From assembly GCA_010405405.1 (NCBI GenBank), contig MU004231.1, positions 3,094,401 to 3,158,400 of the forward strand: a DNA stretch of 64,000 nucleotides, given 5' to 3'. This stretch comes from Microthyrium microscopicum (taxonomy: Eukaryota). The notes under the pieces are model-generated. The model had not been told where the DNA came from. It saw nothing but the letters and a program-made list of their open reading frames with translations, and ran no database searches. Below are positions 7,322 through 30,532 of this stretch, piece by piece (position 1 is the stretch's first letter; every line of letters starts with the position of its first letter). Both the position numbers and the translations under genes were made by a program.

Positions 7322-9687
7322 TAGCATGATATATTGGTGGCAAATTCAATGCTAAGATATCGTTGGCTCGAAGCCGAAGCTTGCAGGATCAACTCGTTTT
7401 TGGAGCAATGAACTTCCCCGAACTCCTCCATTTAAGCTGCAAGGCAATGCCTGTCATACATCAAGCATTTTCAGCCTATGGAGGCCGTGACTGTAGCCGA
7501 ATCATGGTATGGTCATCACAATAGCAAAAGAATCAAACCCAGAACACCGGATTCTTTCAGCTCATCAATCGTGGCTGAATGTTCCTTCTATTATCTCTGC
7601 CTCGGGTGAGCACTGTAGCACTACTTTGGAGGCCTATGTGGCGATCAAAATGCTACTTCTCATCAAAGCACAATTCAGCGTTAAGCCCGTCTTGCTTTTT
7701 CGCCATATACTCTGCAGGTCCTGGATTAGTGAAACTTAAAAAATGGCTGGAATGAGTTGATCGAAGTAGCCACAGCCTCCAATTTGCCTTCGTCACCATC
7801 CGCCAACCGTGAGATGAAGTATGGAGCATAAGTGGGCGGAGCAATTAGGCTTATCAAATACCCAGTAAGACTGGGCCGCCCATCGTATTCGTTTGATCAG
7901 AATGTCAACATCAATTGCTGCTGTGAAATTCAGCATGACACTTCTGTGGGCCAATCAATACTACCGATTATTCTCGAAATTTAGTTGATTACAATTGACA
8001 CTGTGGAGGCAGAGTTTGACACTTGTGAATCAAGACGACTTTGCCCAACGCTCTTTTAAATTCCATGGCCTCCCGGAATTGAAACAGGTGGTGGGTAGAG
8101 TAAAGCAGTCGATAGGAAGCCAAGTAGATGGAATACATCGTAGTTGGTGGGAGACATCGCAGCTAATGGGAGTACTTTGGACCTTGGTTGAATGGTACAT
8201 GACAGCTCTGGCTACCGTACTGCATTTCGCCTCATGGTTCATGAAATGCTTCCTGAATTTCGAACTTCAACGATCGAAAAGCTTGAAATCTGCTCCAGGG
8301 CGCTTGGCCAGGCTCAGTATGGCGTGGAAGCAGACCCTGTAAGAGCGAAATCATCCGACTTCCTTGCCAGCCATAACATGGGAAATATTGAGCACTCATC
8401 TGCCTCGTCTTCCTGATCACGCGCGGCATACTTCCAATAGACCGGTATTGGCCAAGTTTGAGGGTGTACAGCTGTAGAGGTCCATTACAACACGACATGT
8501 TTCTTCTCCACCTGCATTAGGTGCCGCCTGTAAGTTACAGTTTCTGCTGCGAACACTGAAAAGAAGGTTCGCGCATCGTGGCTACGAGGATGAGACTGGT
8601 GTAACTCAAGTTCATGAGACGGCATTGCAGCGGGTCAAGCCGCGTACCGAGCCAATCAGATCCATGAATGGCATTCCATGCTACGATACCAGCAGTTGAT
8701 CATAGCGTTCATTTCATAGCCTTTGCCGTGCCGCTGCAAAGTCCCGCCTTTGGTTTAGCGGCAATCCTCCCTCCCTCAAATTCCTCCAGCCTCCCAGCTC
8801 ATTGCCAAAGAGTGCCACACCTTGTCTGATGCATGCGAATCACTGATCCAAACTTCGCCGCATCTGGCTCGCTGTTGACTGAGTGGTATGATTAGACGCT
8901 GGCCTTGAAGAGTCTGGCATGACAGGCAGTAAGGAGGCAAATCACCGCACTTTGGTCCTTGCGGCCTCCTCAAGTAGGCGAAGTTTCGGTCAGCAATAGT
9001 CTCCATCGTGAAGGCTAGGTACTAATGTAATGTAGGATCGACCAATGCCCCAGTGTGGCTGGAGCAGTGGAGAAGGACAAGGCTGAAGTGCAGGCTACGA
9101 TTGAGCATTCATAAGGCTCGTGAGAATCGTCTTCATTGGATCTTCATTGGATGACGACTTCTTTAGCAACTCGCAAATCATTCAAAATGGAAAGATCTTT
9201 TCTCTATTCTACCTGATGCGTTTCCCTGACTATACAAATCAAAGTTTTCCTTTCCGTTCAAGTGTTGTTTGTCCCTGTTGACCTGCAGCTGAAGAGCGTG
9301 GTCGATGGTCTCAGATCATTGTCACCTGGTTTATCCATCCACTCAACCAATAACGACGCATGCGAGTACGCCTGTCTGCATGATACTATCAGTTCAAACT
9401 ACCTAGGAGCTGCTATTTCGAACTAAAATACACTTGGACACCATTACCAGCATACCAAGCATCACTTCACACCAACTACTACTTCCTTCTTGGATTGCCT
9501 CATCTGGACCTCAGAAAGCTTCCATACTACCATGTCGCCTTAGAGTTGGCATTGGTAGTGATAACATTATCATTTCAAACAACTACTTTGGAAAACAAGA
9601 AGTTGGCCTCAACCTCTCCCAATCGTCACTGAACGTTATACGACCCTACTCGAACCGGAATCCTCCTGTCACCTTACTGGAGCGACC

Positions 9688-11256
9688 ATGTGTCTATACG
9701 TCACTAAGAAATATGTCCATAGAGACGGGCGTACTGAGATTGTACCCGAGTTGGTCCACTGTCGCCATAGTAATGGCAGAGAGCCATGTTCTAACCTATC
9801 AAGGCGCGAGCAAATCATACAGGTCGGTTCCTCATCAAGCTCGCCGGGCTTGACTCCACACGATGGCATGTCTACCGTCTCCTCGAGCATGCCCGCGACT
9901 CCCATCTCCACCACATCTGGTGGCCTTCCCGCTTTTGGCCTGCACAAAGGCACTTATGGTGGGAACGCAAATTATGAAGATAGATCACCTTCCAAAAGCC
10001 CTACGAGGACGAATAGACGGTTCAGGCTGTTTCTAGACTCCGAGTCTAGGTCGCCGCGCGGTACAAGGCCGCCGGCTCCTAGACCAGTTGTCACACAGGC
10101 GCAGCCGCCGTCGCCATCTTCGCCTTTGGGCTACGGAAGAACCGCGCGTTTGCCAGAACGTACTCGAACCGACCATCGACGTGTACGATCGGATTCAGAT
10201 TTCGGTGACTCTTTGCTCACTGCTCGCCCTCATACCGCGGAAGATCGCGCGACCGAGATCGTCGATCGAGCAAATGCTCGTGACCAGCTAAGAAGAGAGA
10301 ACCGCGAGAGATTGCGGGAAGAAGCTGATATTAGGCGGCAACGGGAAGAGTTGGATAGGCAGACAGCGGAACGGATCCATAAAGATCAACGGCGAGAGAA
10401 GGAGGAAAAGCTGCTCGATGAGCAAGAGCAAAGGACGGCAGAACGGTTGCGTGCGCGGGAGCAACTAAGAGAAGAAGCGGCAAGGCGCCGTGAGCAAGAA
10501 GATCGGGCGAAACAAGACCGAGAGCAGCGAGACCGAATGCGAGCCAGACAAGCCGAGGAAGATGCCCGCAAAGAAGAGCGAGAACGACAAGAAGTAGCTG
10601 AGCGGGAGCAGGTGGACCGGCTAAGAAGACAGATTCGTGAAGGCCGTGAGCGAGAAGAGCGTGAGCGGCGAGAACAACAAGAAGCGAGAGACCAACGACA
10701 ACGGGATTTACGAACACGTCAAACTCGTAGTCGCCAAGCTGAACAAGAAATAAATGAGCAGGCAAGGATAACTGATGAGCGACAACGACATGACCTACGG
10801 GTTCAAATCGAGGCTCGTGAGCGCCACTTACAGGAGGCAGAAGCACGTCTATTGCGCCGAAGACAAGAAGAGAATGCCAGACAGGAGGAACTGTGCCAGG
10901 CTCAGCGAGATTTCGAAGAGCTAGATCGTCGGATTCGAGCAAGTGAAGCTCGAGCCGGAGAAACACTTAATCGACTTGATGGCCCTCGCTTTGGTGAAAG
11001 ACGAAACCTCACCGCCACTCAATCACCATACCTCGACGCGCTCTTCCAACCACCACTACCCCTAGACGATGCCGAATACCGACGGCGGCGAGGAGAGCAA
11101 GTGTTGGAGCGTGCTAGGCAGCAAGCCGAGACTTGGGATAATGATGAGGAGTTTGGCGCTTATCGTGTACCGCTGATACGTCGAAATACAACCACTGGCG
11201 GTGACAGATCGCGAGAGACGAATTATAGAAATATGCGTCGAAGATACCCCAGTTGA
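9688..11256 (+). CDS. Hypothetical protein with long Arg/Glu/Gln-rich charged helix or coiled coil
   Basis: 522-aa intronless ORF. Short Cys-containing N-terminus, Ser/Pro-rich linker, ~230 aa of alternating E/R runs. No recognisable catalytic motif. Confidence 0.75.
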   Translation: MCLYVTKKYVHRDGRTEIVPELVHCRHSNGREPCSNLSRREQIIQVGSSSSSPGLTPHDGMSTVSSSMPATPISTTSGGLPAFGLHKGTYGGNANYEDRSPSKSPTRTNRRFRLFLDSESRSPRGTRPPAPRPVVTQAQPPSPSSPLGYGRTARLPERTRTDHRRVRSDSDFGDSLLTARPHTAEDRATEIVDRANARDQLRRENRERLREEADIRRQREELDRQTAERIHKDQRREKEEKLLDEQEQRTAERLRAREQLREEAARRREQEDRAKQDREQRDRMRARQAEEDARKEERERQEVAEREQVDRLRRQIREGREREERERREQQEARDQRQRDLRTRQTRSRQAEQEINEQARITDERQRHDLRVQIEARERHLQEAEARLLRRRQEENARQEELCQAQRDFEELDRRIRASEARAGETLNRLDGPRFGERRNLTATQSPYLDALFQPPLPLDDAEYRRRRGEQVLERARQQAETWDNDEEFGAYRVPLIRRNTTTGGDRSRETNYRNMRRRYPS

Positions 11257-15430: not shown

Positions 15431-17209
15431 TCAGGCGTTGAACAACATCCGAACGGCTACAAGGTCCAGGAAGTAGAAGATCTGGTCTGTTCAGCAAAAG
15501 TCTAATTCTTCATAGTTGCATCAGAACTTACGCCTGAGAGATAATATGGCAAGCCTTGCATGCATTACTGAAGTTAGCTTTGTGATATTTCAGAGAGCAA
15601 CCAGTGAAAACAATTTACAGGAGAGGTATTGCAACACACAAGGCCAAGCTGTAGATGAGCGGCAAAGTTACACCTAGGCGACGGGCTCTAAGAAAAGCAA
15701 ACTCACCCATTGCTGATCCCCCAAAGTGAATCCCCTGACTCCATGCAACTGTCATCAGAGGTAATCCGAGGCAAGTCCCTAAAGTTCGCAATATCATAAC
15801 AATAGAATAGTCATTTGCATGAGCCTCTTGATTGCTATCCGCGATCGTGGGTGATCTCACCAAAGACATGGTAAAAACGGGTAATGCTGATCCTGCAGCA
15901 TACAAAATAAGTGCTAAGCGAGAATTAGCTCCTTCATTGCGACTTTGGGAAGATGATGGAACATGGTAACAGTTGCCAAGTCTTAACAGACAGTCCCACT
16001 AATGCAGCTCCAAGAACGGAGAAGGATATGCTAGCTGCCGCTCCAATGATATTTGTAGTAGTCCCTTCAGTGGTCTGTTTGGAGAGATACCGTATAGATG
16101 TAGGTACCACTATGGTTAACAAAATAACATTTATGACGGCCTTGACTGAAAGTAGATATCCCGCGTCAGAGAGTGTCCAACCATAGCGCTTCGAGATATA
16201 TTGAGCTAACAGTGGAGTGTTTGAGCTTGCTAATGATGCGAGGAAGAACACTGACAGAAGCAGTCGGAACCTTGGTCTTTTGAAGGCCTGCATAACTTTT
16301 CTAAGGTCCGAAATAATGCGAGCTGTAAAGGAAGCTACATCCTCCTTAGGTGCATCCCGGGCGCCGGAATTTTGGCCGAGCAGCGGCTCGACTTGACTTG
16401 ATGCCGCGGTGTTCTCTTCAGAGTCCGTAAACTCGTGCGATTGATCTGGCAAGGACCGTGCTATCAGCATAGCTACCAGAAGAGAAGACATCCCGATGAC
16501 AAATGGAAACCAGATAGACCAAGCCATGGTAGTTGCAGCAACAGTTGGTCCAAGTATTGAACTTATATAAGAAATGGAACTCATGTATGCGAACCACGAA
16601 GCCCTGTACATGTTAGTGGTGCTTGTGGCGTATGACTCGTCAAATACCATTGAACATTATTGGTAGTTAGTTCCGTAATGTACGTCGCCATGACTGTGTT
16701 CAACACACAATCGCCTCCACCAAATAGCGATAAGAAAGGAGCGATGAGCATAGCACCAATTGGGAATGTAGCTCTTGCATAGCCTACCACCAAGAGCCAA
16801 GAATACATCAGTGCTAGACCTCCAACATTGAAGCATAAAAACAGTTTTCTGAAGCCTCGATCGGACAACGCAGCATAGGGGATTGTGACAATCAGATCTG
16901 AGGTCGTCAGCTCACTTCATAGCCTCTGCAGGAATGCCCAGTACCGCAGAGAACGTGGAGCGTCTCGACAGCTCCTTGAAGCCAGGCTAGCTGCTGCTGA
17001 ATCATGTCTAGTTTGCATAGGTGCTCCGGGATATCGAGCCCATCTTTGCTGATTAAAGGGTCATGCTGATCATAATAGTCGAAGCAATATCGAGCTTCTA
17101 TGAGCCTGTTGAGCGCGAGGCTGATGATCCGAATGCTGAGATTCTGAAGCCCCAGTATCACCAGAAGAGTACCCAAAGCTTTCAGCCTCTTACGATCAGA
17201 AAGTGCCAT
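15431..17209 (-). CDS. MFS transporter, ustT-like efflux pump
   Basis: Exons from ORFs 16907..17278, 16581..16868, 15934..16650 and 15615..15905, plus micro-exons GLPYYLSG and IFYFLDLVAVRMLFNA* (stop 15431). Loop 'RLIEARYCFDYY..DP..IPEHLCK..IQQQLAWLQG' and 'LSDRGFRK', 'GGG', 'QYISKRYGW' are typical of this MFS subfamily. Alternative ATG at 17233. Confidence 0.85.
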
Positions 17210-17730
17210 GGGAACAATTGTTGATCGTTGCATGGAGTTGCTGTATTTCAAGGCGTTTGATGCCAAGGCTCTGACCAAACGCGCGTCACACGCGTCGCTT
17301 CAAGCTTGGCGTCAAATATCACTAGCGTATGGGTACGGTAACGGATAAGATAAGACTCCCGTCTTGTGGCGTATCATCTCATCCGCTATAAATACTCCAG
17401 GTCCTCCATTTGTGTTCTCTATTTCTCCTCAATTACAATCGCGTAAAACTCATTTGCTGTGCTCTCGCTCAGTATCTTGGAACATATGTACCCCATCGCC
17501 GTTTCTATGCCATTTTGGCATCTAGATTGCTATGATCGCTGTCCGTACAATGCTTACCTCGTGTCTCTTACGTCTTGAGTATCATTGGATGACGGGTAGA
17601 CCGCATAGCCTTCTGGTCACCTGATTATCATGAAAGGACCAAAAAAGCGTGCAATTCTGATATGGCAACTTCAGAAGTTATTGGCTGTGTTCATCTAGAA
17701 TTGACCACGTGACCAATAGCTCCTGCGATT

Positions 17731-17882
17731 TGTTGTAAGAATATAAGAAATAAAGCGTGGTTAATTACTATGGGAGTCTAAGGGCCTAATATAGTTTTTA
17801 GGATACGCTAATTAGAGGATTATATTATTCCTAATTAGGTCTTATAATTATCTAATCTCTTAGTATATTTTTTATTATAATA
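17731..17882 (-). repeat. 3' LTR (left copy)
   Basis: 152-bp direct repeat of 28719-28870. About 28 differences, all transitions. Adjacent to the polypurine tract. Confidence 0.95.
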
Positions 17883-17891
17883 TTCTCCCTT
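17883..17891 (-). promoter_or_regulatory. Polypurine tract (plus-strand priming site)
   Basis: Minus strand reads AAGGGAGAA immediately before the left LTR, fixing the element orientation as minus. Confidence 0.7.
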
Positions 17892-17979
17892 ACTAGTATA
17901 AACTCTCTTAAGATTATAAATCCTATAGTTATAGCTTTAATAAATAAGTAAAATAAAAAGAATATTATAATAACTAATA

Positions 17980-18072
17980 GGAGGAGTAGTATAGTGGTAG
18001 TACTTACGATCTCGTGGCAGGCCCTACCTGCTTAAAATTCGTAGGGCATAGGTTTAATTCTTGTCTCCCCCA
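17980..18072 (+). tRNA. RIP-degenerated tRNA-like gene (pseudo-tRNA) with intron-like insert, inside the retrotransposon; isotype unresolved
   Basis: Acceptor GGAGGAG/CTCCCCC + A; D arm GTAT-AGTGGTA-GTAC (A box); anticodon stem TACGA/TCGTA enclosing a GCAGG/CCTGC hairpin; T arm ATAGG-TTTAATT-CTTGT (ACAGG-TTCGATT-CCTGT before RIP). All stem defects are C>T or G>A. Confidence 0.75.
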
Positions 18073-20339
18073 CTACCCTAAAAAGGTAATCGTTACTTAC
18101 TTTTAAAGCTATATTTACCCTTTTTTAGGGAAGGTTATCCTTTCCTTTTTAGTAAGTATAGAGGATAAGCTATAGCTCTTTTTAATACGTTACGGAAGGT
18201 ACAAATTTTTGTATTACGTAATTACTATATATAGCTATAAGATTATCCTTATTAAAGCCCTACTAACTAATAATAGACTAGCGTTAAATTATATAATTAG
18301 AAACTAGCTACGCAAAGCTATACTAAAATAAGCTATAATACTACTAAAGCGTAGTAAAATTAGCATACTAAGATAACTCTTTTATAGCTCTTAGCAACTA
18401 GATTGAAGGATTGGCCCTAGCTTAGTAAGCTTGAAATCTAGCCGCGTAAGGCAAGATTAGACTAAATGACATAGTAGTAAATTACGATATCTAGGAACAC
18501 TACGGCTTAGTAAGTATAGTACCTATAGGTTAGTATAAACGGCGCTATAGGATAAGTTAGTAGACTTAGGGGAGGTAACCTAGAATACGCTGAGCTAAAG
18601 GACCCTAGATCTTGGCTTAAAAGCAAAGTACAGCGTAGCAGATAGCCCTTAGTAGACTAACGGCGCTGCCTTAGATTTAGTATTTAACGGCAAGAATGGA
18701 GGGATCTAACATAATAATAAGGAAGGAATCTTGGCCCCTTGGGGGACGACAATATTAGCAACTTTAAGAACTTGAAGTAGTGAACTAAACGGAAGAATAA
18801 TAACTTGTAATGGATACTAGCCTAGAGAGGTGTTACGGTTGGATACTACCTAGAATTTGGCTCTCCTAACCCACTAATGCTTCTATGGCTTGGGAAGCTA
18901 ATGGGGCTTAGCATAGTATTAATAGCCTTAGTATGGATTAGTCTACGGAATATAATAGCGAGGTTTTCCCTTATATAGTTAGCGCCTCAGTTTGCTAAAC
19001 ATGTAGGGATTAGCTAAAGCTAGACTAGGCCTTAGGTCTAGAGTGAGCTAGCTTAGCTAGATTTGGGTAGATTAGCTAATTAGATAAAAGTTTTTACCCG
19101 CTTATTAAGAGTAGCGTCTACATAGCCCATTAGCGTAGCTAAAAGACAATAAACAAGATTTAATAATATAATAACTAATAAGGAACCTTTACTTAAAACT
19201 TAGGACTATTGCCCTAGTTATACTATAAAATAATCTTTAAGAAGTTATTTTCTTAAAATCTTCCTTAAGATCTAGGTTAAACTATTATAAATAATATTTA
19301 GACGTTTATAGTTCTTAATCTTTTTAGAAAGATTTATTTATATAAAGACTATTAGTAATAATAAATTAAAGAATTATAAGAAGTTTATATAAGCGTATTA
19401 AAGCTACTTAATCTAATAAAAAATATATATAACTTATATTCTAAGGCTTTAAAGAATAAAGTTCGTAAGAAGTAATATATAGGTAGTAATAAAGAACTAG
19501 GTAGTAATTACTAGTTTAAGTAAATATAAAATAGAGGCTTAATCCTATATCTATAAAGTTTTATAATTTATTATCTTCTCTTTTTCTTCTTTATTATACT
19601 TTTATAATACTTTAAGTTAGTAAAAGTAGATTCTCTTTTATACTTTTAATATTATTAAGTATAAATAGCTTTATATATTCCTCTTCTTTAATTCTTAATT
19701 CTTTTTAAGCTCTTAATTATAAGAGCTCTTTAAAATAGCTTTTTATACTAAGCTAACTACGTTACTTTTAAAAATACCTAAAAAGCATAGTACTTACTCT
19801 TAAGTTTCTTAAGCTTAGCGTAATTAAGCTAAATCTTTATAATAAGTTCTAAATTCTACTACTTAGCTTTTAAGTTTAGTTACTTAACCTTATTCTAAAG
19901 AACGTCTATAATTATTTATAAATATACTTAAGCATTTATCTTCTCTAACTAAGGCTTATAGCTAATAAGATAGTATATTAAGATTCCTAAGTATAAGGAA
20001 TAATAATAACTACTTTTCGCCTCTTCTAGCTAGATTTAGTTATTAATAGAGTATTAGCTATCTAAATTCTTCTCTTAAAGAAGCTTACTAGTAGTTTTCT
20101 ATAAGTTACTATAATGTTAATTCTAAAACAAGATAATCTTATAAATAATTACTTATATTTAGACTATATTCTCTAGTTCTAAAAAGTAAGTTCTTTTACT
20201 AATAAAAGTTAGCTTATAAGTAAGCTACTTAAGAAATACCTAAATAAAAGGTAGGTTTTACTAAGAAGAATACTTTAATATAGGTAATATTTTAATAACT
20301 CTAAGAAATAAGTCTCTTAAATTAAAATAAGATTAAGCT

Positions 20340-21330
20340 ATTTATAATATTTAGTACTTATATTACTAATATTTTTAGTCTAGACTATAACTTCTTAAAT
20401 ACTATATTACTTAACTTTATATAAATATATATAAAGTAAGATATAATATATTTTTAAGTTTAAGTAATAAAAGATATACTCTAATATATTTAGAATAGTT
20501 TAATACGTTCTAAAATAATTTTATACTAAGTTATTAATTAAGAGTATAGCTAAAGCTACTACTATTATATAATACCTAAGCTAAAGTAAACTTATAGTAT
20601 TTCTTAAGTATATAAATATATAGTTAGTAAGACTAGCTTCTTAACTATTCTTAAAAATAAACTAGAATATATTAAGTCTTTAAGTAAAGAAAAGATAAAG
20701 ATACTATTATATTAGCTTATAAAGAAGTAAAGTAATACGTATAAGACTTTACCTAAGTCTTAAATTAAAGTAGAGCCTAGTTTAAGTTATTATTTAGCTC
20801 TCTTAAAAAAGCTTAATAAGTAGATTTATAAGTATTTACTTAATAATATAGCTTATACTATAGTAAGTAATTAATTAATTTACTTAAACTATTAGCTATA
20901 GATATATAAAAAGAAGACTTAGGATAAGCTTATTTAGGTCCTATAAAATCTTTAGAATTAAAGAGTTAAAATTCCTTAAGAGATCTTAGTATTACTTAAA
21001 TACTACGTTAAGTATAGTTTTACTTAGATTAAGCTAGCTATTATAGTAATAACTAACTTATTATCTAGTAATAATAAGCTATAAGAAGCTATAACTTATA
21101 TTTAGAGTTACTAACCTAACTAGCGTTATAAGAAATATAAATACTACTATATACTTAAGCTTTTAAATAAGGAAGTTATTATTTAGTATAATTATATAGT
21201 CTTCTAAGATATAAAGGGCAATTTTATATTTAATAAGGCTTATATAAATTATACCTTAAATAGTAAATAAGATTACTTATTTATAATAAAGAAGATAAAT
21301 ATAAGTACTATATAATTAATATAAGTAATT
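20340..21330 (+). pseudogene. RIP-destroyed accessory ORF antisense to gag/pol with DUF3716-like Cys motif
   Basis: Frame of 20581 restores R-C-x-x-C (21124-21138), C-V-V-F (21193-21204) and A-C-x-N-C-A-L-N-G-K-x-D-C-S-F (21238-21282) when TAT/TAC are read as TGT/TGC. The stops are TAA/TAG, as expected from RIP. Ends approximate. Confidence 0.55.
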
Positions 21331-21849
21331 ACTAAACTACTTATTACTCTTATTTATAGCCCTATTAGTAGCCTATTATCTATACTATCTTTAAGTTATC
21401 TAGAAGCTTTATTAACTACGTTTAGTTTTAGTAGGAAAAAAGTATATTAGCTTACTTATATAGAAGAAGAAATAAAACTAGACTCTTAGAGTTAGTTATC
21501 TTCTAAGGAATAGAAAAAGGTAATATTAGGCTTATATTACTTTAAAACTAGAAAGTAGAAAGTTAGCTTAGGAATTTAGGTTATTTAGGTTTCCTATTTC
21601 TTACTATTAAATATTTTATAAAAAAGCTTTTAATAATAGTCCTAGAGATTACTAAAGAGATTTAAAAATAGCTTATTATATTTAAATAACCTTAGTAATA
21701 GTTCTAAGAATTACTAAAAAAATTTAAAGGTTTAATTTTAGTTATTATTACTTATAATAGTTTACTTAAATTAATAATAAATAAAAGTAATTTCTTATAA
21801 ATAGTTTCCTTAAATAAATATAATTAAGAAAAGTTATAAAAAAGATAAT

Positions 21850-24800
21850 AAAAGGTTAATTTTTCTTTTTTTTCTTATAAATATTTTACTTATATCTATA
21901 TATAAGATAATCTCTTATTTAGGAGTAGCCTTTTATTATCTCTATTCTAATTTTAAATATTATAAACTAGTACTAAGGCGTATAAAACTATTAAGTATTA
22001 TAGTTAGCCTAAATATATTAGTATTCTATAAAAATCCTTTAGTTATATCTATTTTTTATAGTAAACTAAGTTTAGAGTAATTTATAAAAAGAACCTTTAC
22101 TTTTTTAATATCTAATAATAAAGAGTTAATATCCTAATAGCTTTCTTTAGAATTAGATACCTATTTATATAGATTTATTACTTTTAATATAAGCGTATAG
22201 ATAATTAAGGTAGTAATTTTATTATAGCTCCTTAGCTTTAATAATTTATCTTCTTACTCTTATTATTCTAGTAATATAAAGATTAATTCTTAATCTACTA
22301 TAGCTAGAAGGATTTTCTTCCTTACTAAGCTTTAATTTAAAAAGATAAGAATATTATTATTCTTTTTCTTTACTAAATCTTATAGTATTATAGAATATTC
22401 TATTTCTTATATAATTTACTTTATTTACTCTAAATTGCCTTATATTAAAGCTAGAATTAAATTAAGAAGAATATATTCTAATATTATAGAAGTCTCTAAG
22501 TTACTACTTAGATTATAGATAGTTACTATAAGATATTTCTTTTCTTATTTATAAATACCTACTTTAGCTTTCTAAACTTTTCTTATAAAGTTAAAAAAGA
22601 TAATAAATAAACTTAAGTAATATTTCTTAGTACTAAACCTCTTAATATTAATTAACTCTACTAAAAGGTTTCTTAATTTATTAAGCTAGTTTTTCTTAGT
22701 TATAGTAAATATATTTATTTTATTTTTATACTCTTTATTTAGGATACTTTTAAGGTTATCTTTACTTAGTTATTTATACTTAAAGTATAGCTAATTTTAG
22801 TAATAATATTTATTTTCTTCTTATATATATATTTATATAAAGTAATTTCTATAGATAAGGTTTTTAAGTACTTTTCTATTAAGTATCTTAAAAGCGTATA
22901 TTTTTAAAAAGTAAGTCTTTAAGACTTTATAAAAGTTAAACTATACTACTTAAAACTTAGTTTTATTTAAGTTTTTAAAGAGTATATAAAAACTTATAGA
23001 GAACTTAATAATAAAGTTCTTTTTTAAAATTATATTACTATTAATAAAGTTTAAGGCTATAGCTTATTTTAATAAAGTATTATAATAGACTTATTTAATA
23101 GTTTTAACTTTCTCTAAGTAATCTTTAGTAATTATATAAATAGAAAATATAATACTAGTTAATTTAGCTTATTTATTTTCCTTTACTTAGCTTATTTTAA
23201 AGTTTTTAGAATCTCTTTTATAAATAAAAAAAAAGGAGATATTCTTAATATAATATAAGCTTATACCTTAGTAGTATAAACTACTTAATCTAAGTATAGA
23301 TTCTAGCTAGCTATAAGTTTTTCTTTTAAGAACTTAGTTAAGAATATACCTAGTAAGCTATTAAATCTCTTAATCTTCTTATTAAACTAGGAGTTATATA
23401 GAGCTATTAAATAGTACTTAGTCTTTATCTATTATAATAAAAATAAAATTATATTTAAAATAAACTAAGGTTTATTATCTAAAGTTAATAATTAAGAAGA
23501 ACTATATTTTAAAATAATTTTCTTATAAATAAATTCTATAACTATAGAAATAATAGTATTTAGTACTACTTTTATAATAAACTATCCTATAATATAATTA
23601 ATTATATAGATAATATACTAGTTTTTAAAAAGACTCTATAAAAGTTTATTAATTAAGTTAATTCTCTAAGCCTTAAATAGCTATAGGTTTTATACTTAAT
23701 AGTAGGACTTATATTTAAGCTTACTTTAATTTATCTATTAAACTTAATATATAAAATAGAACTTAGTAAATTTTTAAAAGTTATTCTTTATTTCTAGCTA
23801 CTAATCCTTTAGTTTAAAGATACTAGTAAGGCTTATATATAATAAGTACTTATACTAATTATATATTTTCTTAATAAGGTCTTAATAGTAGAAAGAATAA
23901 ATATAAAATAAACTAGTAAGTATCTTTATTTTAATAGAATCTATCTTTAAGAATAAATATTTATATTTCTTTTTAATATTACTATTAAGATTAATCTAAA
24001 AATAATTAAGAATACTTTTCTAAAGCCTTTTCTATATACTAATAAAGATAGTATAATTTTTCTTTTCTAATACTTTTTATAAGTCCTATATATAGAGAAT
24101 TTCTTATCTTTTTTACTCTTATAAAGATTTTAATAAAGTAGCTTATATCTTAAAAGATAAATTATTATTACTATTTTTAAGCTTTATTTCCTAAATAGTA
24201 TTAATCTATTCTTCTTAAAAGTTTAAGTAGTAATTAAGAATATTAAGAACTACTACTTAGGAACTCTTATAATATATAAAAATAAGATTAAATTCTTAGA
24301 ACTCTTTAATTTATTAAGTAATATATTAAGTATTATTCTTAATTATATTTATATACTATAAGCTATTATAATTTATAATTATTTTAGTAGTCTTTTCTAA
24401 AAAGTAGTATTAGTATTTTCTAATTATATTCTTAACTATAAGAAGCTCTTTCTTATATACTAGATAGTTAAGTTTAGCTTTATTTAGCTTATAGCTATTA
24501 AAAGTAACTAAGTACTATTTATTTTAGTTATTTTCTTATACTAGCTTATAACTAATTATATAATTTAAAGTATTTATTTAAAGCTTTATAGACTTTTATA
24601 AATTATATATTACTAAGATAGATAATAAAATTAATAGAGTCTTAATTCTATTAAAAGCTATAGTATATTAATAAGTCTAAGTAATAAAGTAGTACTTCTT
24701 TTTTCTAATATTTAGATTAGCCTTCTTTAAGAAATTAAAAATAAAAGTAGTAATCTTAATAAAGTTCTTAATATACTACTAATAGTATAAAGTAAAACTA

Positions 24801-27500
24801 AGAAATTAATATACTTTATATATATTCTTAAGTATAAGCTAGAACTTAATTAAGATAGTCTTTTTATATAAAGATTAGATTTACTAACCTTCTACTTTAT
24901 AGCTATAGAATTTAATCTTCTTAACTTTAAAGATATATTTATTAAGATAAGTATAAAGCTTATTATTTTAAAGAATCTTTAGAACCTAAGTAATATACTT
25001 ATAATATTTCTTTATAGTATCTAAGTAAATAATAATATTATCTAGGTAAATAACTATATAGATTAATAAAAAGAGCTAAAAAAAAATATTTATTATATAT
25101 TAAAAAAATAATAGTATATTTATTAATCTAAAAGATATAATAAGAAACTTATACTTCCTAAACTTAGTATTAAAAGCTATTTTCTTAATATTTTTTTCTA
25201 CTATATAGACTTATTAATAGCTTAATAAGAAGTTAAGCTTAAAGAAGAATCTTACTCTATTAATAGTATTAAGATACTTATTAATTTATAGTAAGAAATA
25301 AGTATCCTTATATATAACTATATTAAGTAAATAGTAGTTAATATATATTCTTTATTTTTCTCTTAGCTTTAATATAAATAAGATAAAGAAACTCTAAGAA
25401 CTTTCTAAGACTCTAATAAGTTCTTTAATAAATAGTTCTTAAATCTACTTTTCTTACTCTTCTAATTATAGATTAGATATTTAATAATAAGCCTAATTAT
25501 AAAGAGAGGCATCTTTTATAAAGATTTTATAATTAAACTTAGAATATAGAAAAAGTTTAGAAAGAGTATAATAAAAAGACTTATAGTAATTATTTAAAAG
25601 TTTTTATATACCTTTATCTTTTAAAGTAAGTTTATTAATATTAAAGTTATTAATTATTAAAAGGATATTAAGCTATTTTTATATTCTATAAATTAGCTAA
25701 AAAATATCTTTAACTTTATCCTTTATTCTTTTTACTCTATTTTAAAGTACTTAAAAGATTATATAAAGAAAGCTAGCTATAAACTACTTTATTTATTTTA
25801 GATAGCTTCTTTTATTCTAAAGAAACTCTACCTAGCGTCCTATAATAAGCTTATAAGTATAAAAGCCTTTTAAGCGTTACTTTATAAGCTTAATTTACTC
25901 TATTATTTAATTAATTTATAGATTATATAACTAGAACTATAAGAGTCTAAAAATAACATTAAGATTAAAGATATCTAGGATATAAGCCTTAAAGTAGCTA
26001 TAAAAAGTCCTAATATAATAAGATAAATAAATTCTAAAGGAAGTTATAACTATATAGCTATTTATAAAAATAACTTCTTTCTCTAGAATAAGTATTATAA
26101 AAGCTTTAAGTTTCTTAATAATTTTTTAACTAATATAAATAGAGTTAGTTTCTAAGTTTAGAAAAGCTATAGTCTTAATAAAATAATTTTTATAATATAA
26201 GTAAATAAGTAAACGTAAGAGAGTATTATTATATCTACTTATATAGTTAAGAAAAGCTTATTAGTTATTATATAAATAAGTAGAGTATTCTAGTTCTAAG
26301 CTAGAAAATTCTTATTTATCTTCTAGTAATAATAGTTTTTTAAACCTTATTATTACTAGTTAAGCTTTTTATAATTTATAGTATAGTAGCTAAGTTTACT
26401 ATAATTTTAATACTTAAGTTTAGAGTTATTTATAAAAGCTTTTCTACTTTTAAAGTCCTTTTTATAAAAGAGCTATAACTTCTTATTAAAGTTAAATTTC
26501 TTAGAGTATTAAGTATTATATTATCCTTTAAGATAATAACTATAGCTATTTATAGTATTAAGCTACCCTAAATTATTATTATTTAACTTAAGCTTATTAT
26601 TAGTATAACTATTACTACTAACTTCTTTAAAATATTCTTTAGAATTAATATCTAGAATAGGCTCTTTATTTTCCTTAAAACTAGAGAAGATTTTATTAAG
26701 CTATTTTAGCTTATAAGTATTATAAATATTACGTATATTTTTATAAAAGTCTATATTATATTTAATAATCTCTTATTTAAAGACTAAAATATTAACTATA
26801 AGATTAAAAATAGTACTATATTTATACTTAGCTTTAAGAATAACTTATTCTTTAAAGCCTTCTTAGATTTAGATACCTATTTTATAATTAATAAATATAA
26901 GATTTATTTAAGTTTATAGAATATAAAAATAATAAATAAATTTTTTAGTAAATAAAACCTATAATATATAATCCTACTAAATACTAACCTTAAGTATATC
27001 TTTTTTAATACTAAATATAGATTAAAAATAAATAAAGAAGTAAAATAAACTTTTAAGTATTTTAAACTCTTTAATAGCCTATTACTAAGCTAAGTTAGCT
27101 TATAAAAGACGTTACTTAATAGAGAGATATTTTTTAACCTTAGTAATTTTTTACTACTTAAGTAGAATAGAATCTAATAGAAGAATATCCTTACTAGCCT
27201 TAAAGGTATAAAGAAGGCTCTTAGCTTAAATATTATATTTACTTAGTTTCTTAAAGAATAAATTATTAAGAAGTATCTTAAACTTAGTTAAATATTATCT
27301 TTATTCCTAAGGAACGTCTCTTATTATCTTAATAAGTTTTTAAGAACTAAAAATTTAGAAAAGTAATTTAATAGTCTTATCTAACTTCTTACTTAGCTTT
27401 CTTATAAGATCTAGGTAAGTAATACCTATTTATAAAGTTTCTTAAGTTAAAGTCTAAGTTTAAATATAAGCCTTAATTTTATTTATTTAGTAATTTTAAA
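21850..27500 (-). pseudogene. gag-pol relic of the Ty3/Gypsy element
   Basis: De-RIP readings: CxxCGKxGHxxxxC; AFLDSGA; SPWGFPILFVPKPGGKWRMCIDYR...VMPFGLTNAP...YLDD; WGIDLIG...AIDYATGW...TSDNGPQF...YNPQSNGKIERFNG...SPFFL; W-F-G-P-Y. The frame seems to continue ~300 codons past GPY. Both ends approximate. Confidence 0.9.
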
Positions 27501-28671
27501 TATATAGAATAAACTTACTTATATTAAGGTAAAAGGTTAATTTAGTAATATAATTTACTATTTTCTATTACTAAGTATATTAAATATTTTTTATAAGTTT
27601 AGAGCTATAATCTTATTTAATTTACTTATTAGTAGTAGAGTAAAATAATATTTTTTAAAAAAGAATAAACCTATTTATAGACTACTAATTTTTATTATTA
27701 TTATATTAGAAAGTTTAGTTATAAGCCTAAGGAATATAGTTAAGTTTCTTAGAAGTATAATTTTAAGCCTAAGAGAGAGTTTATAATTTAATAAAAGAAT
27801 AGTTAATAGTTTAGGAATTAACTTAATACGTATTAATAAGATAGTTTAGAACTTAAAGCCTTAATTACTAAATATTAATAACCTAAGTTATAAAGTTAAA
27901 ATTAGGATTTAGTATACTAGGAAGGTTATTTAATAATATAAGAATAAGTTACTTATTTTAAAAACTTAAGTTAGTAACTTAGGCTTAGTATTATACTTAC
28001 TAAGTATTTTATTTTATAGCTTAAGCTATAATATTATAATATTAGTTATTTATTTTAGTAAAGAGAGATAATAGTTTTAATAAAGAATATAATCTTAATA
28101 AAATAAAGAAAAAGTCTTAAGATTTAGAAGTTCTTATACTAAAGTTAGTTAAATAGAATCTAAAGTTAAAAGATTATTCTAAGGTAGATTTTTATACTTT
28201 TTTAGTATAGATAAAATCTTAATCTAATTTCTTAAGATAACTTAAGGCTAAGAGTCTATATTATTATTTATTAGCTTTAATCTATATAGTAAAGTTCTTA
28301 TAATATTATTCTAAGGAATTTTCTAAGGAAAAGTTCCTATATTTTATCTAATAGCTATATAATTAATATAATAAAGGTTAGTAAAAATAAAAAGGGTATT
28401 ATTATAAGAGAAATAATTCTTATAATATATTTAATAATTCTTAAAGTAGTAATTTAAATTAAAGATAATTTAAGACATTTTTAGAATATATTATAATAAA
28501 GAATATTATTATATATAATATTTTAAGAATTATTTCTTAATATATAGTTACTAAGTATTAAGCTATAATAAGGCTAGCTAATTAAAGAATAGTATTCTTA
28601 GAGTATATCTTACTAAATATTAATCCTAAATAATTATTAATAATATAATAAATCTAAGGATTCCTATAAAA

Positions 28672-28716
28672 GGTTTATTATCTAAAAGTCCTAATTAAAT
28701 TAAATTATTACTACTA
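28672..28716 (-). promoter_or_regulatory. Primer-binding site, probably initiator tRNA-Met, apparently extended
   Basis: Starts 2 nt inside the 5' LTR: TAGTAGT.. (TGGTAGC before RIP), followed by RIP-compatible matches to the TTTCGAT and GACCTCCGGGTTATGAGCC complements of tRNA-iMet (tRNA sequence recalled from memory). Confidence 0.6.
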
Positions 28717-28718
28717 AA

Positions 28719-28870
28719 TATTATAAGAATATAAGAAATAAAGTATAGTTAATTACTATAAGAGTCTAAGAACCTAATATAGTTTTTAGGATATGCTAAT
28801 TAGGGAATTATGTCATCCTTAATTAAGTCCTACGATTATCTAATCCCTTGGCATGTTCTTCATTACAACA
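28719..28870 (-). repeat. 5' LTR (right copy)
   Basis: 152-bp repeat ending TTACAACA, followed by TSD CGATT. Confidence 0.95.
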
Positions 28871-29543
28871 CGATTGTATGTTTTTATATCACATATTACA
28901 ATGTTAATCAGCCCGCTCCGTGTTCGGGTGTGATTCATGCTTGATCAAATTAGTCTTATCTTAACCAGTTAGCAAGCGACATATGGTCTGCTTGATTCCA
29001 CTGACCGTGCCTTGTGCCAGGAAGAGCCAGCGAGGAAACCTTTTGTCCACACTGCCACAGTTGACCGCCCGAAGAAGTTTTGGCTGCGACATGCTCCAAT
29101 ACTTTACTCCCAAAGGGCGATCTTTTGAAATAGGTGCTCTGACACTGTGATGAGCTTCACTAAACTTCTCGCCACAAGCTCTAGTGGTACTCTTCCACCG
29201 GTGTTGTTTACAGTTCCCTCAATGGCCGCATCCCATTCGAAATAAGGGTGAGGGTGACTGTGCCCATGGAGAACGCACTTTGCTGCACATCATCCAGTCA
29301 GGCTTTAGCTTTTGCTGCGCGGCCTTGTGGCCAATCTGGATTGAAATTCTTTCAATCGCCTACCATGGTTAATAACTGCGGCTTCGGGCCTGGCAACCGC
29401 TCGTAGCCAATATCATTCCTCTCAAGAAGCGTGTCCTGCTGTCCTTGACTTGCGTGTCCTGCTGTCCTTGCTTTACATTGGAATCTTAACTTATTTCTCG
29501 ATTCACGAAAGCTACAGGCTTCCATCCCGTTCCGTTGCGCATC

Positions 29544-30035
29544 ATGCTGCCAATGTTATCACCAGAACAGATCACTGCTTTCGCTACCTTAGGAGATGAA
29601 ACTGCACCGCCTCACCCTGCAACTATCTCTGCTGGGGACGTCGCAAACTTGCAGGCGGCTCAGGATTCCAAGTAACTCTTCATTTGTCCACACCTTGATG
29701 AGTAGGCTTACTGACATATTCTCAGACCATGTTTTCCCTCCAACAGCAAGAACACTCCAACTCAATTAGCGAAAGTGCTGCCCGAGAGTAGTTCCACCAC
29801 AAGCGGAAATTACATCAACGTTGCGAGAGTCCATACCAACGCTAATAACCCTGCCACTCTCCCGCCCACGGCCACATCTCGATACACACAGATTGGTCAT
29901 AGAAATGAACCGTGGAACGCGATCAAAGAAGTCAAAGAAACGGCTGGAGAGACCATTGTCAACAGTGCAGAGCAGACTGAAGTAGACCACATGTCTAATG
30001 GGTATATCATCACCAACTGTGCTCAAGAAGCTTAG
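29544..30035 (+). CDS. Small hypothetical protein (~145 aa, two exons)
   Basis: ATG 29544; intron 29672-29725 (GTAACT...CTGAC...CAG) joins in frame to ORF 29775..30035. No recognisable domain. Confidence 0.4.
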
Positions 30036-30532
30036 TCGTCAGAATCAGGGATACTTGCAAGCCATGAGTATTATACTCAAGCCCAGAATGGAATTGATCT
30101 TGCCATACTTTGCTCTTGCTCGGTCGTGTATGCAAAGCTGACATTGCTCAAATCCATAGCAGGTCCTTGTAGTAATTTTTTCAAAGAAACTACGATGGTA
30201 AGGTATTTTGCCTTAGACTCACTCATTCCCAAATTGTCTTTTCGATAAGTCTATCATCAGCATATAAGTTCACCACTATTGAAGATCGGCAATTACGTTC
30301 CATTTGCTTATGCAGGCACAATCAGAAATACTTGAACTTTTAAGATCTAAAGGAAGTACCAGAATATGTAGATGGGCTGTATGTAGGTAGATTACTCTAT
30401 TTTTGACCAAAATTGTATGACCTTTGCTAAAATGCAGCAATGCTAAACCAGAGATATAGATAGCACCAAAACACGACATTAGATAGCACTATATCACGGA
30501 TCCTTTATCGACCAGAGTCACATGTGGTAAGT

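Follow-up and report, generated by a model that had tools for sequence, protein, structure and literature searches.

A tRNA-headed SINE-like retroposon nested in the long tail of a RIP-saturated Ty3/Gypsy element

The Ty3/Gypsy Element

The window analyzed here is a stretch of 64,000 nucleotides from contig MU004231.1 of Microthyrium microscopicum, and on its minus strand lies a RIP-saturated Ty3/Gypsy element that spans 11,140 nt. The 3' LTR (17731-17882) and the 5' LTR (28719-28870) align over 152 nt without gaps, with 124 matches, 28 transitions, and 0 transversions, and the loose ends of other copies of the element fall at 28868-28871. When the less mutated letter is taken at each end, the LTR termini read TGTTG...CAACA (TG...CA type). 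The pair is enclosed by a 5-bp target duplication (TSD), CGATT, at 17726-17730 and 28871-28875. A polypurine tract (PPT) that reads AAGGGAGAA on the minus strand, the reverse complement of 17883-17891, adjoins the 3' LTR. The minus-strand sequence past the 5' LTR, at the place of the PBS, is TTTAGTAGTAATAA and is too mutated for a tRNA to be assigned. These features agree with an initial annotation of the locus, which had described one LTR pair and one outer TSD around 11.1 kb, a PPT, and no second LTR pair or TIR inside. In transition-collapsed dot plots the LTR pair alone was detected at a threshold of at least 88/100, and at a relaxed threshold of at least 78/100 nothing exceeded the maxima of 77-79 given by Markov nulls. 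Tandem Repeats Finder returned only 11 tiny arrays.

Remnants of the pol domains are found on the minus strand in the order PR-RT-RNaseH-INT, and the nearest relatives show the same order. The aspartyl protease (PR) remnant at 25943-26221 matches residues 54-145 of P0012 (E 0.001), which carry RVP_2. The RT and RNase H remnants (24335-25438, or 25636-23435 in the domain-order comparison) also match P0012, with a phmmer E of 1.9e-88, and Pfam places RT_RNaseH_2 at 24383-24661 (E 1.1e-11). The integrase remnants (22836-23689) consist of a core at 23225-23689, corresponding to residues 596-728 of P0013 (E 6e-14), and a C-terminal piece in a different frame at 22836-23075, corresponding to residues 771-850 (E 5e-05). 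The end of pol is placed near 22050 by extrapolation from the length of relatives, and the canonical domains lie beyond it, as had been annotated. A Pfam search of the three minus frames of 17883-28720 recovered RNase H alone and missed the element's own RT and integrase. No Pfam chromodomain match was obtained in the window, where RIP may mask one, and 7 of the 7 nearest relatives gave none either (E<=0.001). Direct LTRs with TG...CA-type ends, a TSD of 5 bp (4-6 bp in Ty3/Gypsy elements), and the PR-RT-RNaseH-INT order place the element in Ty3/Gypsy. This element, with its 152-nt LTRs, probably inserted here on the minus strand, and RIP afterwards drove it to mutational saturation. Elsewhere in the window, a host ORF at 9565-11253 was searched for context and gave 2 matches.

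From pol to the Polypurine Tract

The 4 kb that separate pol from the 3' LTR had been interpreted, tentatively, as an accessory module made up of a Pol III unit and a zinc-binding protein. What stands of that proposal is a long tail: the RIP-saturated sequence from 19181 to about 22050 (minus strand, ~2.9 kb, upper limit extrapolated from relatives) is family sequence, common to copies in two organisms. Other copies were studied in contigs of at least 80% likeness from four runs, of which X1, X2, and X3 represent one sample, perhaps the source of the window, and X5 represents a second organism (organism B). The contigs are mostly shorter than 500 nt, none reaches from pol across the 2.9-kb region to the PPT, and depth sums are not to be read as copy numbers. 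X5 gave no cover on the flanks at 16000-17451 and 29068-30500, which proves nothing about organism B. No depth bin of 19181-22000 is left uncovered in any of the four runs. The 2.9-kb region is represented in each run by at least 4-7 other contigs and is present in organism B. In contigs that lack the insert described below, this region runs directly into 17883-17979 on the PPT side. The region and the insert are both multi-copy.

Cover of the tail is uneven. In X3 the 2.9-kb region is represented by 4-13 variant contigs per place as opposed to 18-20 in pol, the number is 4-7 at 20164-21299, and depth dips in the bins of 19872-21323. The smaller number of contigs at 19872-21323 may mean that some family members lack this part or have diverged past 80% likeness. 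Two joints, 19975>24793 and 21318>22706, were set aside as AT-rich and with 20 letters only on one side.

Two stretches of the tail, each of roughly 750 nt, have a coding-like codon signal when codon usage is scored with the RT-INT of the element itself as the training set. Stretch A (19514-20263, sense, minus strand) has an LLR of 14.9 over 250 codons, with a p value of 0.006 under one Markov null and 0.02 under a second, and stretch B (20608-21357, antisense, plus strand) has an LLR of 20.7 over 250 codons, which was reached in 0 of 500 sequences of each null. The strand of each is uncertain, as in the gag control the score gave +26.5 versus -23.5 and did not tell the strands apart. Additionally, the period-3 signal at 20700-21299 (z 5.4) is comparable to that of pol windows. 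These signals suggest that the 2.9-kb region may once have contained coding sequence.

The window copy has no open frame in 19181-22050, and every frame contains ~6-18 stops per 100 codons, with a compositional expectation of ~9.5. The minus-strand helical ORF of the initial annotation is accordingly not open, and its antisense Cys-motif ORF could not be recovered, as 17883-21850 contains no stop-to-stop frame of at least 30 aa with at least 3 Cys. Stop density alone was misleading: one frame of the gag region has few stops on account of T in second codon positions. Pfam gave no match in any of the six frames across the pol-to-LTR interval (plus frames: 17883-22200); since it missed the element's own RT and integrase, the lack of matches is weak evidence either way. 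A PDB sequence search with stretches A and B returned 0 matches at E<=1, and a word-index protein search with the plus strand of 20530-21579 scored 2510 candidates with none at E<=0.01. A relaxed tblastn search of 150 Gypsy polyproteins against 19181-22450 gave 316 matches, all with E>=0.088. Approximately 30 of these pile up at 21895-21939 (plus strand) from the YXDD region of the queries, and they were rejected: the codon score is negative there, and the pile-up counts as one chance event because the queries are mutually homologous.

One possible reading, judged less likely than not, is that the 2.9-kb region represents one or two extra genes destroyed by RIP, a sense gene at about 19514-20263 and an antisense gene at about 20608-21357, in the manner of brtn in Boty or of the genes that Grande, RIRE2, and Retand carry in antisense, the printed precedents (PMC7264820; PMC8365987). 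The pol-like periodicity, the codon scores, and the presence of the region in copies from two organisms agree with this reading, while the closed frames with stops near the expected density, the empty Pfam, PDB, and word-index searches, and the strand-blind codon score speak against it. A doubtful reading is that the region derives from a different transposon, as an older nested fragment that entered a master copy and spread with the subfamily. Such a fragment would account for a coding signal on the opposite strand, where stretch B scores as coding, and for the thinner contig cover at 20164-21299 with the dip at 19872-21323, and complex nested LTR elements are described as common in fungi (PMC3248453). 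Against it, no termini, TSD, LTR, or TIR were detected around any sub-stretch, the Pfam searches gave no transposase, RT, or integrase domain there, the Gypsy polyproteins produced only the weak tblastn matches, and the junction on the PPT side is identical in the empty-site copies. It appears that the family has its own stretch of ~2.9 kb between pol and the PPT and that this stretch was the target of a later insertion.

The Nested tRNA-headed Insert

The block at 17980-19166 (plus strand, antisense to the Gypsy element) is a nested, partly RIPed, tRNA-headed SINE-like retroposon of 1187 nt. It is bracketed by an exact direct repeat of 14 nt, TATAATAACTAATA, with the left copy at 17966-17979 and the right copy at 19167-19180, and the repeat adjoins tRNA position +1 on one side and the end of the GC-richer block on the other. 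The initial annotation had seen no second TSD inside the element; this repeat brackets both the tRNA and the less-RIPed block. A 14-mer recurs 200-3000 nt downstream at only 10 of the 7822 positions of the island. The TSD 14-mer is present once more on the opposite strand at 26272, so that words of this length do repeat in the island.

The tRNA-like gene that had been noted is real. The head of the insert (17980-18072, plus strand) matches Rfam RF00005 with 40.1 bits (gathering score 29, E 1.1e-05), and this is the sole match at E<=1 among the 13,001 bases searched with Rfam. The A box, TAGTATAGTGG, is nearly intact and fits the consensus in 10 of 11 places. In the window copy the B box has decayed through transitions to GGTTTAATTCT and the acceptor stem is also damaged; a paralogous contig keeps an intact B box, GGTTCGATT. 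ARAGORN in its default mode reported no tRNA in the window. With introns allowed it proposed a tRNA-Phe(aaa) whose 22-nt intron would sit at a non-canonical position; this anticodon is not trusted, and the tRNA is given no species.

The block was also correctly described as less RIPed, with a GC content of 0.369 and a substrate index of 0.47 as opposed to 0.17-0.20 and 0.01-0.03 in the rest of the element. The lighter mutation of the insert would reflect a later arrival or fewer rounds of RIP, and we infer that it arrived after the Gypsy element. T-runs of 4-6 occur from 18101 on and would stop Pol III in the window copy, preventing a transcript of the whole unit. The insert ends in ...AAGATTTAATAA, which is A/T-rich only, with no clean poly(A) or simple repeat. 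SINEs are usually shorter than about 600 bp. With its length of 1187 nt and its T-runs, the insert falls outside the short SINEs and is filed as SINE-like rather than as a SINE.

Contigs from other copies confirm the termini. The joint 17965>19167, found in X3 and X2, skips 1201 nt, with 14 letters that fit both sides and 66 letters on the shorter side. In the joint 17979>19205 (X3 and organism B) a diverged copy of 19181-19204 lies between the two sides, and 17979>19215 in X2 is a third variant of the empty site. The precise empty site is present in at least three distinct paralogous contigs, one of them from the second organism. Additionally, the joint 17980>28482, found in X1 and X2 with the two sides on opposite strands, attaches the 5' end of the insert to another Gypsy position. 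This is the one independent junction for the dispersal of the insert, alongside loose ends behind 19174, and all of these contexts are short. Variation among copies is also seen: 10 X3 contigs read C at 19037 where the window reads T, an X5 contig spans 18599-19002 with 17 differing letters and 3 gaps (96% alike), and variants with internal deletions exist. A fuller picture is considered unlikely. In it, the tail coded before RIP for two accessory proteins without a known family, one in sense and one in antisense, which would make this a fungal Gypsy lineage with extra genes of its own; separately, the insert would represent a family of unusually long (1.2-kb) tRNA-headed retroposons that two organisms share near-unchanged.

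The own TSD, the paralogs with an empty site, and the 5' end joined elsewhere mean that the Pol III unit is not cargo of the Gypsy family. Most probably another mobile element, a non-autonomous tRNA-headed SINE-like retroposon of 1187 nt, landed in the tail, 83 nt from the PPT and on the strand opposite to the Gypsy element. Its copying-in would most likely have relied on a LINE and its target-primed reverse transcription, with the 14-nt duplication left as the trace. The 'tRNA gene' and the 'less-RIPed block' would both come from this one insertion.

It is very improbable that the block is host DNA with a tRNA gene that was patched in through repair or recombination. The length and the T-runs past the head are odd for a SINE transcribed by Pol III and speak for such a patch, but the exact 14-nt duplication, the start at tRNA +1, the many variant contigs, the independent junction at the identical 5' base, the 96%-alike piece in the second organism, and the RIP of the block, as is seen for duplicated DNA, all argue against it. 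The weakest reading makes all 4 kb, with the tRNA gene among them, an accessory module that copies of the family pass on. It draws on a real tRNA-like gene within one LTR pair with one TSD and no internal LTR pair or TIR, and it has almost no probability left given that a 14-nt TSD flanks the tRNA block itself, that at least three paralogous contigs (one from the second organism) have the exact empty site, that a further contig attaches the 5' end of the block to a different Gypsy position, that the interval contains no Cys-rich frame, and that the B box is mutated in the window copy. Own termini with a TSD, a precise empty site in paralogs, and a 5' end joined elsewhere, observations of the kind that the initial annotation had named as contrary to a module, apply to Pol III unit and less-RIPed block alike.

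We consider it probable, with good confidence, that the interval is a composite of a nested retroposon and a family-wide tail. It is an ordinary case of nested transposons and not a new system. The tRNA gene within the LTR pair looked like cargo and proved to be part of a second transposon with its own TSD. In the annotation of RIP-rich fungal genomes, such duplications should be checked for before captured Pol III units are proposed. The points that remain are a retroposon of twice the usual SINE length and a long Gypsy tail that was possibly once coding, like that of Boty with brtn, and neither of these opens a long-standing question.

Comparison with Known Systems

Among 79 Gypsy loci found in a metagenome scan, none exceeded ~27% identity to the mutated reading of the element. 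Twenty of the 79 have a repeat pair around pol; 10 of these were dropped as the pair corresponded to contig ends, and 1 had no pol stop. The distances from the pol stop to the LTR in the 9 usable loci are -132, 36, 36, 145, 587, 670, 774, 1749, and 2259 nt, and nothing transferable was found in the two loci with the longest spacers (L064 and L049).

Boty/BcGypsy1 of Botrytis cinerea has an antisense extra gene, brtn, between pol and the 3' LTR (PMC8365987), and the plant Gypsy elements Grande, RIRE2, and Retand have additional antisense genes before the 3' LTR (PMC7264820; PMC11963269). The element described here resembles Boty, Grande, and Retand in its long stretch after pol and before the 3' LTR, which other copies of the family share, in the antisense coding-like signal, and in the lack of similarity to known proteins. 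It differs from them in having no open frame and LTRs of only 152 nt, and the likeness to brtn lies in the architecture. An undescribed system had been suggested for this locus; a long pol-to-LTR region is already in print for Gypsy elements (PMC7264820; PMC8365987).

The arrangement proposed initially, an LTR element carrying a Pol III promoter, is that of the TRIMp3 elements. These LTR retrotransposons (Cassandra, Helenus, and Ajax) have a Pol III promoter derived from small RNA genes; they are small and non-autonomous, and in all copies each of the two LTRs contains a tRNA- or 5S-like sequence (PMC10886601). In fungi they are reported from Pucciniales and some Agaricomycetes (PMC10886601). 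Neither LTR here contains a sequence derived from a small RNA, and the Rfam tRNA match is single and internal. Unlike in TRIMp3, the tRNA-like sequence has its own 14-nt TSD and is absent from paralogs.

The tRNA-derived SINEs of filamentous fungi, such as the AfuSINE2 families of Aspergillus fumigatus, are 140-493 bp long with TSDs of 4-14 bp (PMC5063351). The insert is like these SINEs in its 5' head, which is related to a tRNA and has A and B boxes, its tRNA-unrelated body, its short direct-repeat TSD (14 nt here), and possibly in having several dispersed copies. In contrast to them, it is 1187 nt long, about twice the typical fungal length (140-493 bp, PMC5063351), it has no clean 3' repeat or poly(A) and no identified LINE partner, and it is damaged by RIP. 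Complex (nested) LTR transposons occur in fungal genomes (PMC3248453). The insert at 17980-19166, a second insertion within a Ty3 element, shows no essential difference from these.

Structure of the Gypsy element

The only AT-rich island in the window extends from ~17.7 to 28.9 kb (GC 0.16-0.25; surrounding DNA ~0.46-0.50) and is bordered by an LTR pair, direct repeats of 152 nt at 17731-17882 and 28719-28870 whose ungapped alignment contains 124 matches, 28 transitions and 0 transversions. The target duplication CGATT lies immediately outside both copies. Indices of repeat-induced point mutation (RIP) reach extreme values within the island, with a substrate index of 0.01-0.03 and TpA/ApT of 1.6-1.7, compared with normal values of 1.43-1.46 and 0.73-0.75, respectively, in the flanks. 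The island is a single LTR element that was mutated by RIP after insertion, with the one LTR pair and one target duplication described in the initial annotation, and its whole content is inactivated by RIP. A joint found in one contig each of X3 and X2, public runs of organism A, carries an LTR end into an LTR start (17882>17731, back 152), which can be read either as another copy with tandem LTRs or as a junction common to two elements.

The protein remnants of the element are on the minus strand throughout. Pfam identified RNase H at 24383-24661 (E 1.1e-11), and the read-through translation of 25900-22301 gave 22,498 matches at E<=0.001 in a full HMMER scan, the top one being the Gypsy-type protein P0012 (1.9e-88). 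With the best 150 of these 22,498 matches as queries, tblastn located the protease (25943-26221), RT-RNase H (25636-23435), the integrase core (23689-23225) and a second integrase piece in a different frame (23075-22836). In the seven nearest relatives the domains run PR, RVT_1, RNase H, integrase, and ~400-450 residues follow the integrase core, which places the end of pol near 22050. On reading the sequence, a minus-strand purine tract, AAGGGAGAA, was seen to adjoin the left LTR. These domains and the purine tract bear out the anatomy first proposed, in which ~4.2 kb separates pol from the PPT. The coding-like frame changes from 2 on the gag side to 1 near ~26300, which may be a natural gag-pol frameshift, and from 1 to 0 inside the integrase (~23225-23075), where an indel is probably responsible.

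A nested tRNA-headed unit

The initial annotation suggested that the interval between pol and the PPT may be an accessory module of the Gypsy family, made up of a Pol III unit and a zinc-binding protein. The Pol III unit instead belongs to a separate insertion that probably arrived later. Its tRNA-like head (17980-18072, plus strand) scored 40.1 bits with the Rfam tRNA model (gathering score 29) and was the sole Rfam match at E<=1 across 13 kb. The 14 bases directly before tRNA +1, TATAATAACTAATA (17966-17979), have an exact second copy at 19167-19180 that coincides with the end of a GC-richer block; only 10 of 7822 positions within the island have a 14-mer that recurs 200-3000 nt downstream. 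The unit between the copies (17980-19166, 1187 nt; GC 0.369, substrate index 0.47) is RIPed, yet far short of saturation. The tRNA-like gene and the less-RIPed block, both correctly noted at the outset, are one nested element. With transitions ignored, neither inverted repeats nor a second, internal LTR pair came to light (at >=88/100 the LTR pair alone was recovered; at >=78/100 no repeat rose above the null maxima of 77-79), in agreement with the initial view, but the accompanying statement that no TSD was seen inside is not confirmed, given the exact 14-nt repeat.

Contigs of X1, X2, X3 (a single sample, possibly the source of the window) and X5 (organism B) were placed on 16000-30500 at 80% likeness. 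In one contig each of X3 and X2, 17965 is joined to 19167, skipping 1201 nt, with 14 letters fitting both sides and a shorter side of 66 letters. One contig each in X3 and X5 joins 17979 to 19205, the intervening 24 letters being a transition-diverged copy of 19181-19204, and a third variant (17979>19215) is found in X2. These are paralogous Gypsy copies with an exact empty site, and they lack 17980-19166; the copies do not all carry the whole 4 kb. A joint in X1 and X2 (17980>28482, opposite strand) begins at the unit's first base and is the same 5' end elsewhere in a Gypsy copy. Among variant contigs, ten from X3 carry C instead of the window's T at 19037, X5 record 24 differs from the window by 17 letters and 3 gaps over 18599-19002, and one contig departs from the window at 18030 into an intact B box. 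Taken together, the empty sites, the 17980>28482 joint and the variant contigs indicate a mobile unit that exists in multiple copies and does not belong to the Gypsy family. The share of its words present was 0.73-0.94 in four runs of the one organism A sample and 0.26 in one organism B run.

Several of the placed contigs carry internal deletions of the unit (58-102 nt; joints 18310/18311>18370, 18428>18492, 18442>18545 and 18520>18599), so the unit family is variable in length. Separately, X5 record 31 matches the window at every position across 281 nt of heavily mutated sequence (27722-28002) and the island's unique flanks have zero cover in X5; organisms A and B seem to have at least one already-RIPed copy in common.

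The remaining 2.9 kb

The rest of the interval, 19181 to ~22050, is sequence of the Gypsy family. In the empty-site contigs, including the one from organism B, the 83 nt on the PPT side lead straight into 19181 and beyond, and all depth bins are covered in 4/4 runs (X1, X2, X3 and X5). X3 contigs that differ from the window number 13 at 19617, 4-7 at the places listed in 20164-21299, 7-13 in 22141-22678 and 18-20 in pol. The middle of the stretch has fewer contigs than pol; continuity with pol is taken from unbroken cover by short contigs only.

No open frame was found in this stretch (stops ~6-18 per 100 codons vs ~9.5 expected by composition). The zinc-binding part of the proposed module was not recovered, as no frame of at least 30 aa with at least 3 Cys was found in the interval. 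Searches for homology in Pfam (six frames), with 150 Gypsy polyproteins, among PDB sequences and in a word-index protein search gave none, which is weak evidence since Pfam also missed the element's own RT and integrase. The longest stop-free frame of the interval (21814-22080, plus strand, 88 aa) is antisense to the pol end; many Gypsy RTs match it weakly at a YXDD-like motif (E 1-4), which was judged to be chance.

Some coding-like signal persists in the stretch, with a period-3 power of z 5.4 at 20700-21299. A codon score trained on the element's own RT-INT and compared with two Markov nulls (500 simulations) was 20.7 at 20608-21357 on the plus strand, reached by 0/500 simulations in both nulls, and 14.9 at 19514-20263 on the minus strand (p 0.006 and 0.02). 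Both strand calls are tentative because the strands were not separated in the gag control (+26.5 vs -23.5). What stands of the accessory module is a long tail of the Gypsy family, possibly once coding.

Comparison with known elements

The arrangement in which small-RNA-like sequence lies within both LTRs, described for the Helenus/Cassandra type in the excerpted text of PMC10886601, is not the case here, and that reading of the unit was rejected. The unit would have been copied in, SINE fashion, by LINE target-primed reverse transcription, a mechanism that fits its 14-nt duplication, its first base at tRNA +1 and its A/T-rich target and 3' end. Fungal SINEs in the part of PMC5063351 cited here are 140-493 bp with TSDs of 4-14 bp; the unit is twice their length and has T-runs shortly after its tRNA head, and for these reasons it is labeled SINE-like rather than SINE.

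Among 79 metagenomic Gypsy loci gathered as a convenience sample, nine had usable LTR pairs, with pol-to-LTR spacers of -132 to 2259 nt (median 587); the 2.9-kb spacer is long, yet not of another order. One very GC-rich metagenomic Gypsy (L064:8080-10740) has a 2.3-kb spacer with an 844-aa antisense stop-free frame, which may be chance in such DNA.

Both parts of the interval are of known kinds, a nested insertion and a Gypsy element with a long pol-to-LTR region. Nested 'complex' LTR elements are frequent in fungi according to the excerpted text of PMC3248453. Long pol-to-3' LTR regions like the one here are described, in the cited portions of the sources, for the plant Gypsy families Grande, RIRE2 and Retand, with extra sense or antisense ORFs of unknown function (PMC7264820; PMC11963269), and in a fungus for Boty/BcGypsy1, which carries brtn as an antisense gene (PMC8365987).
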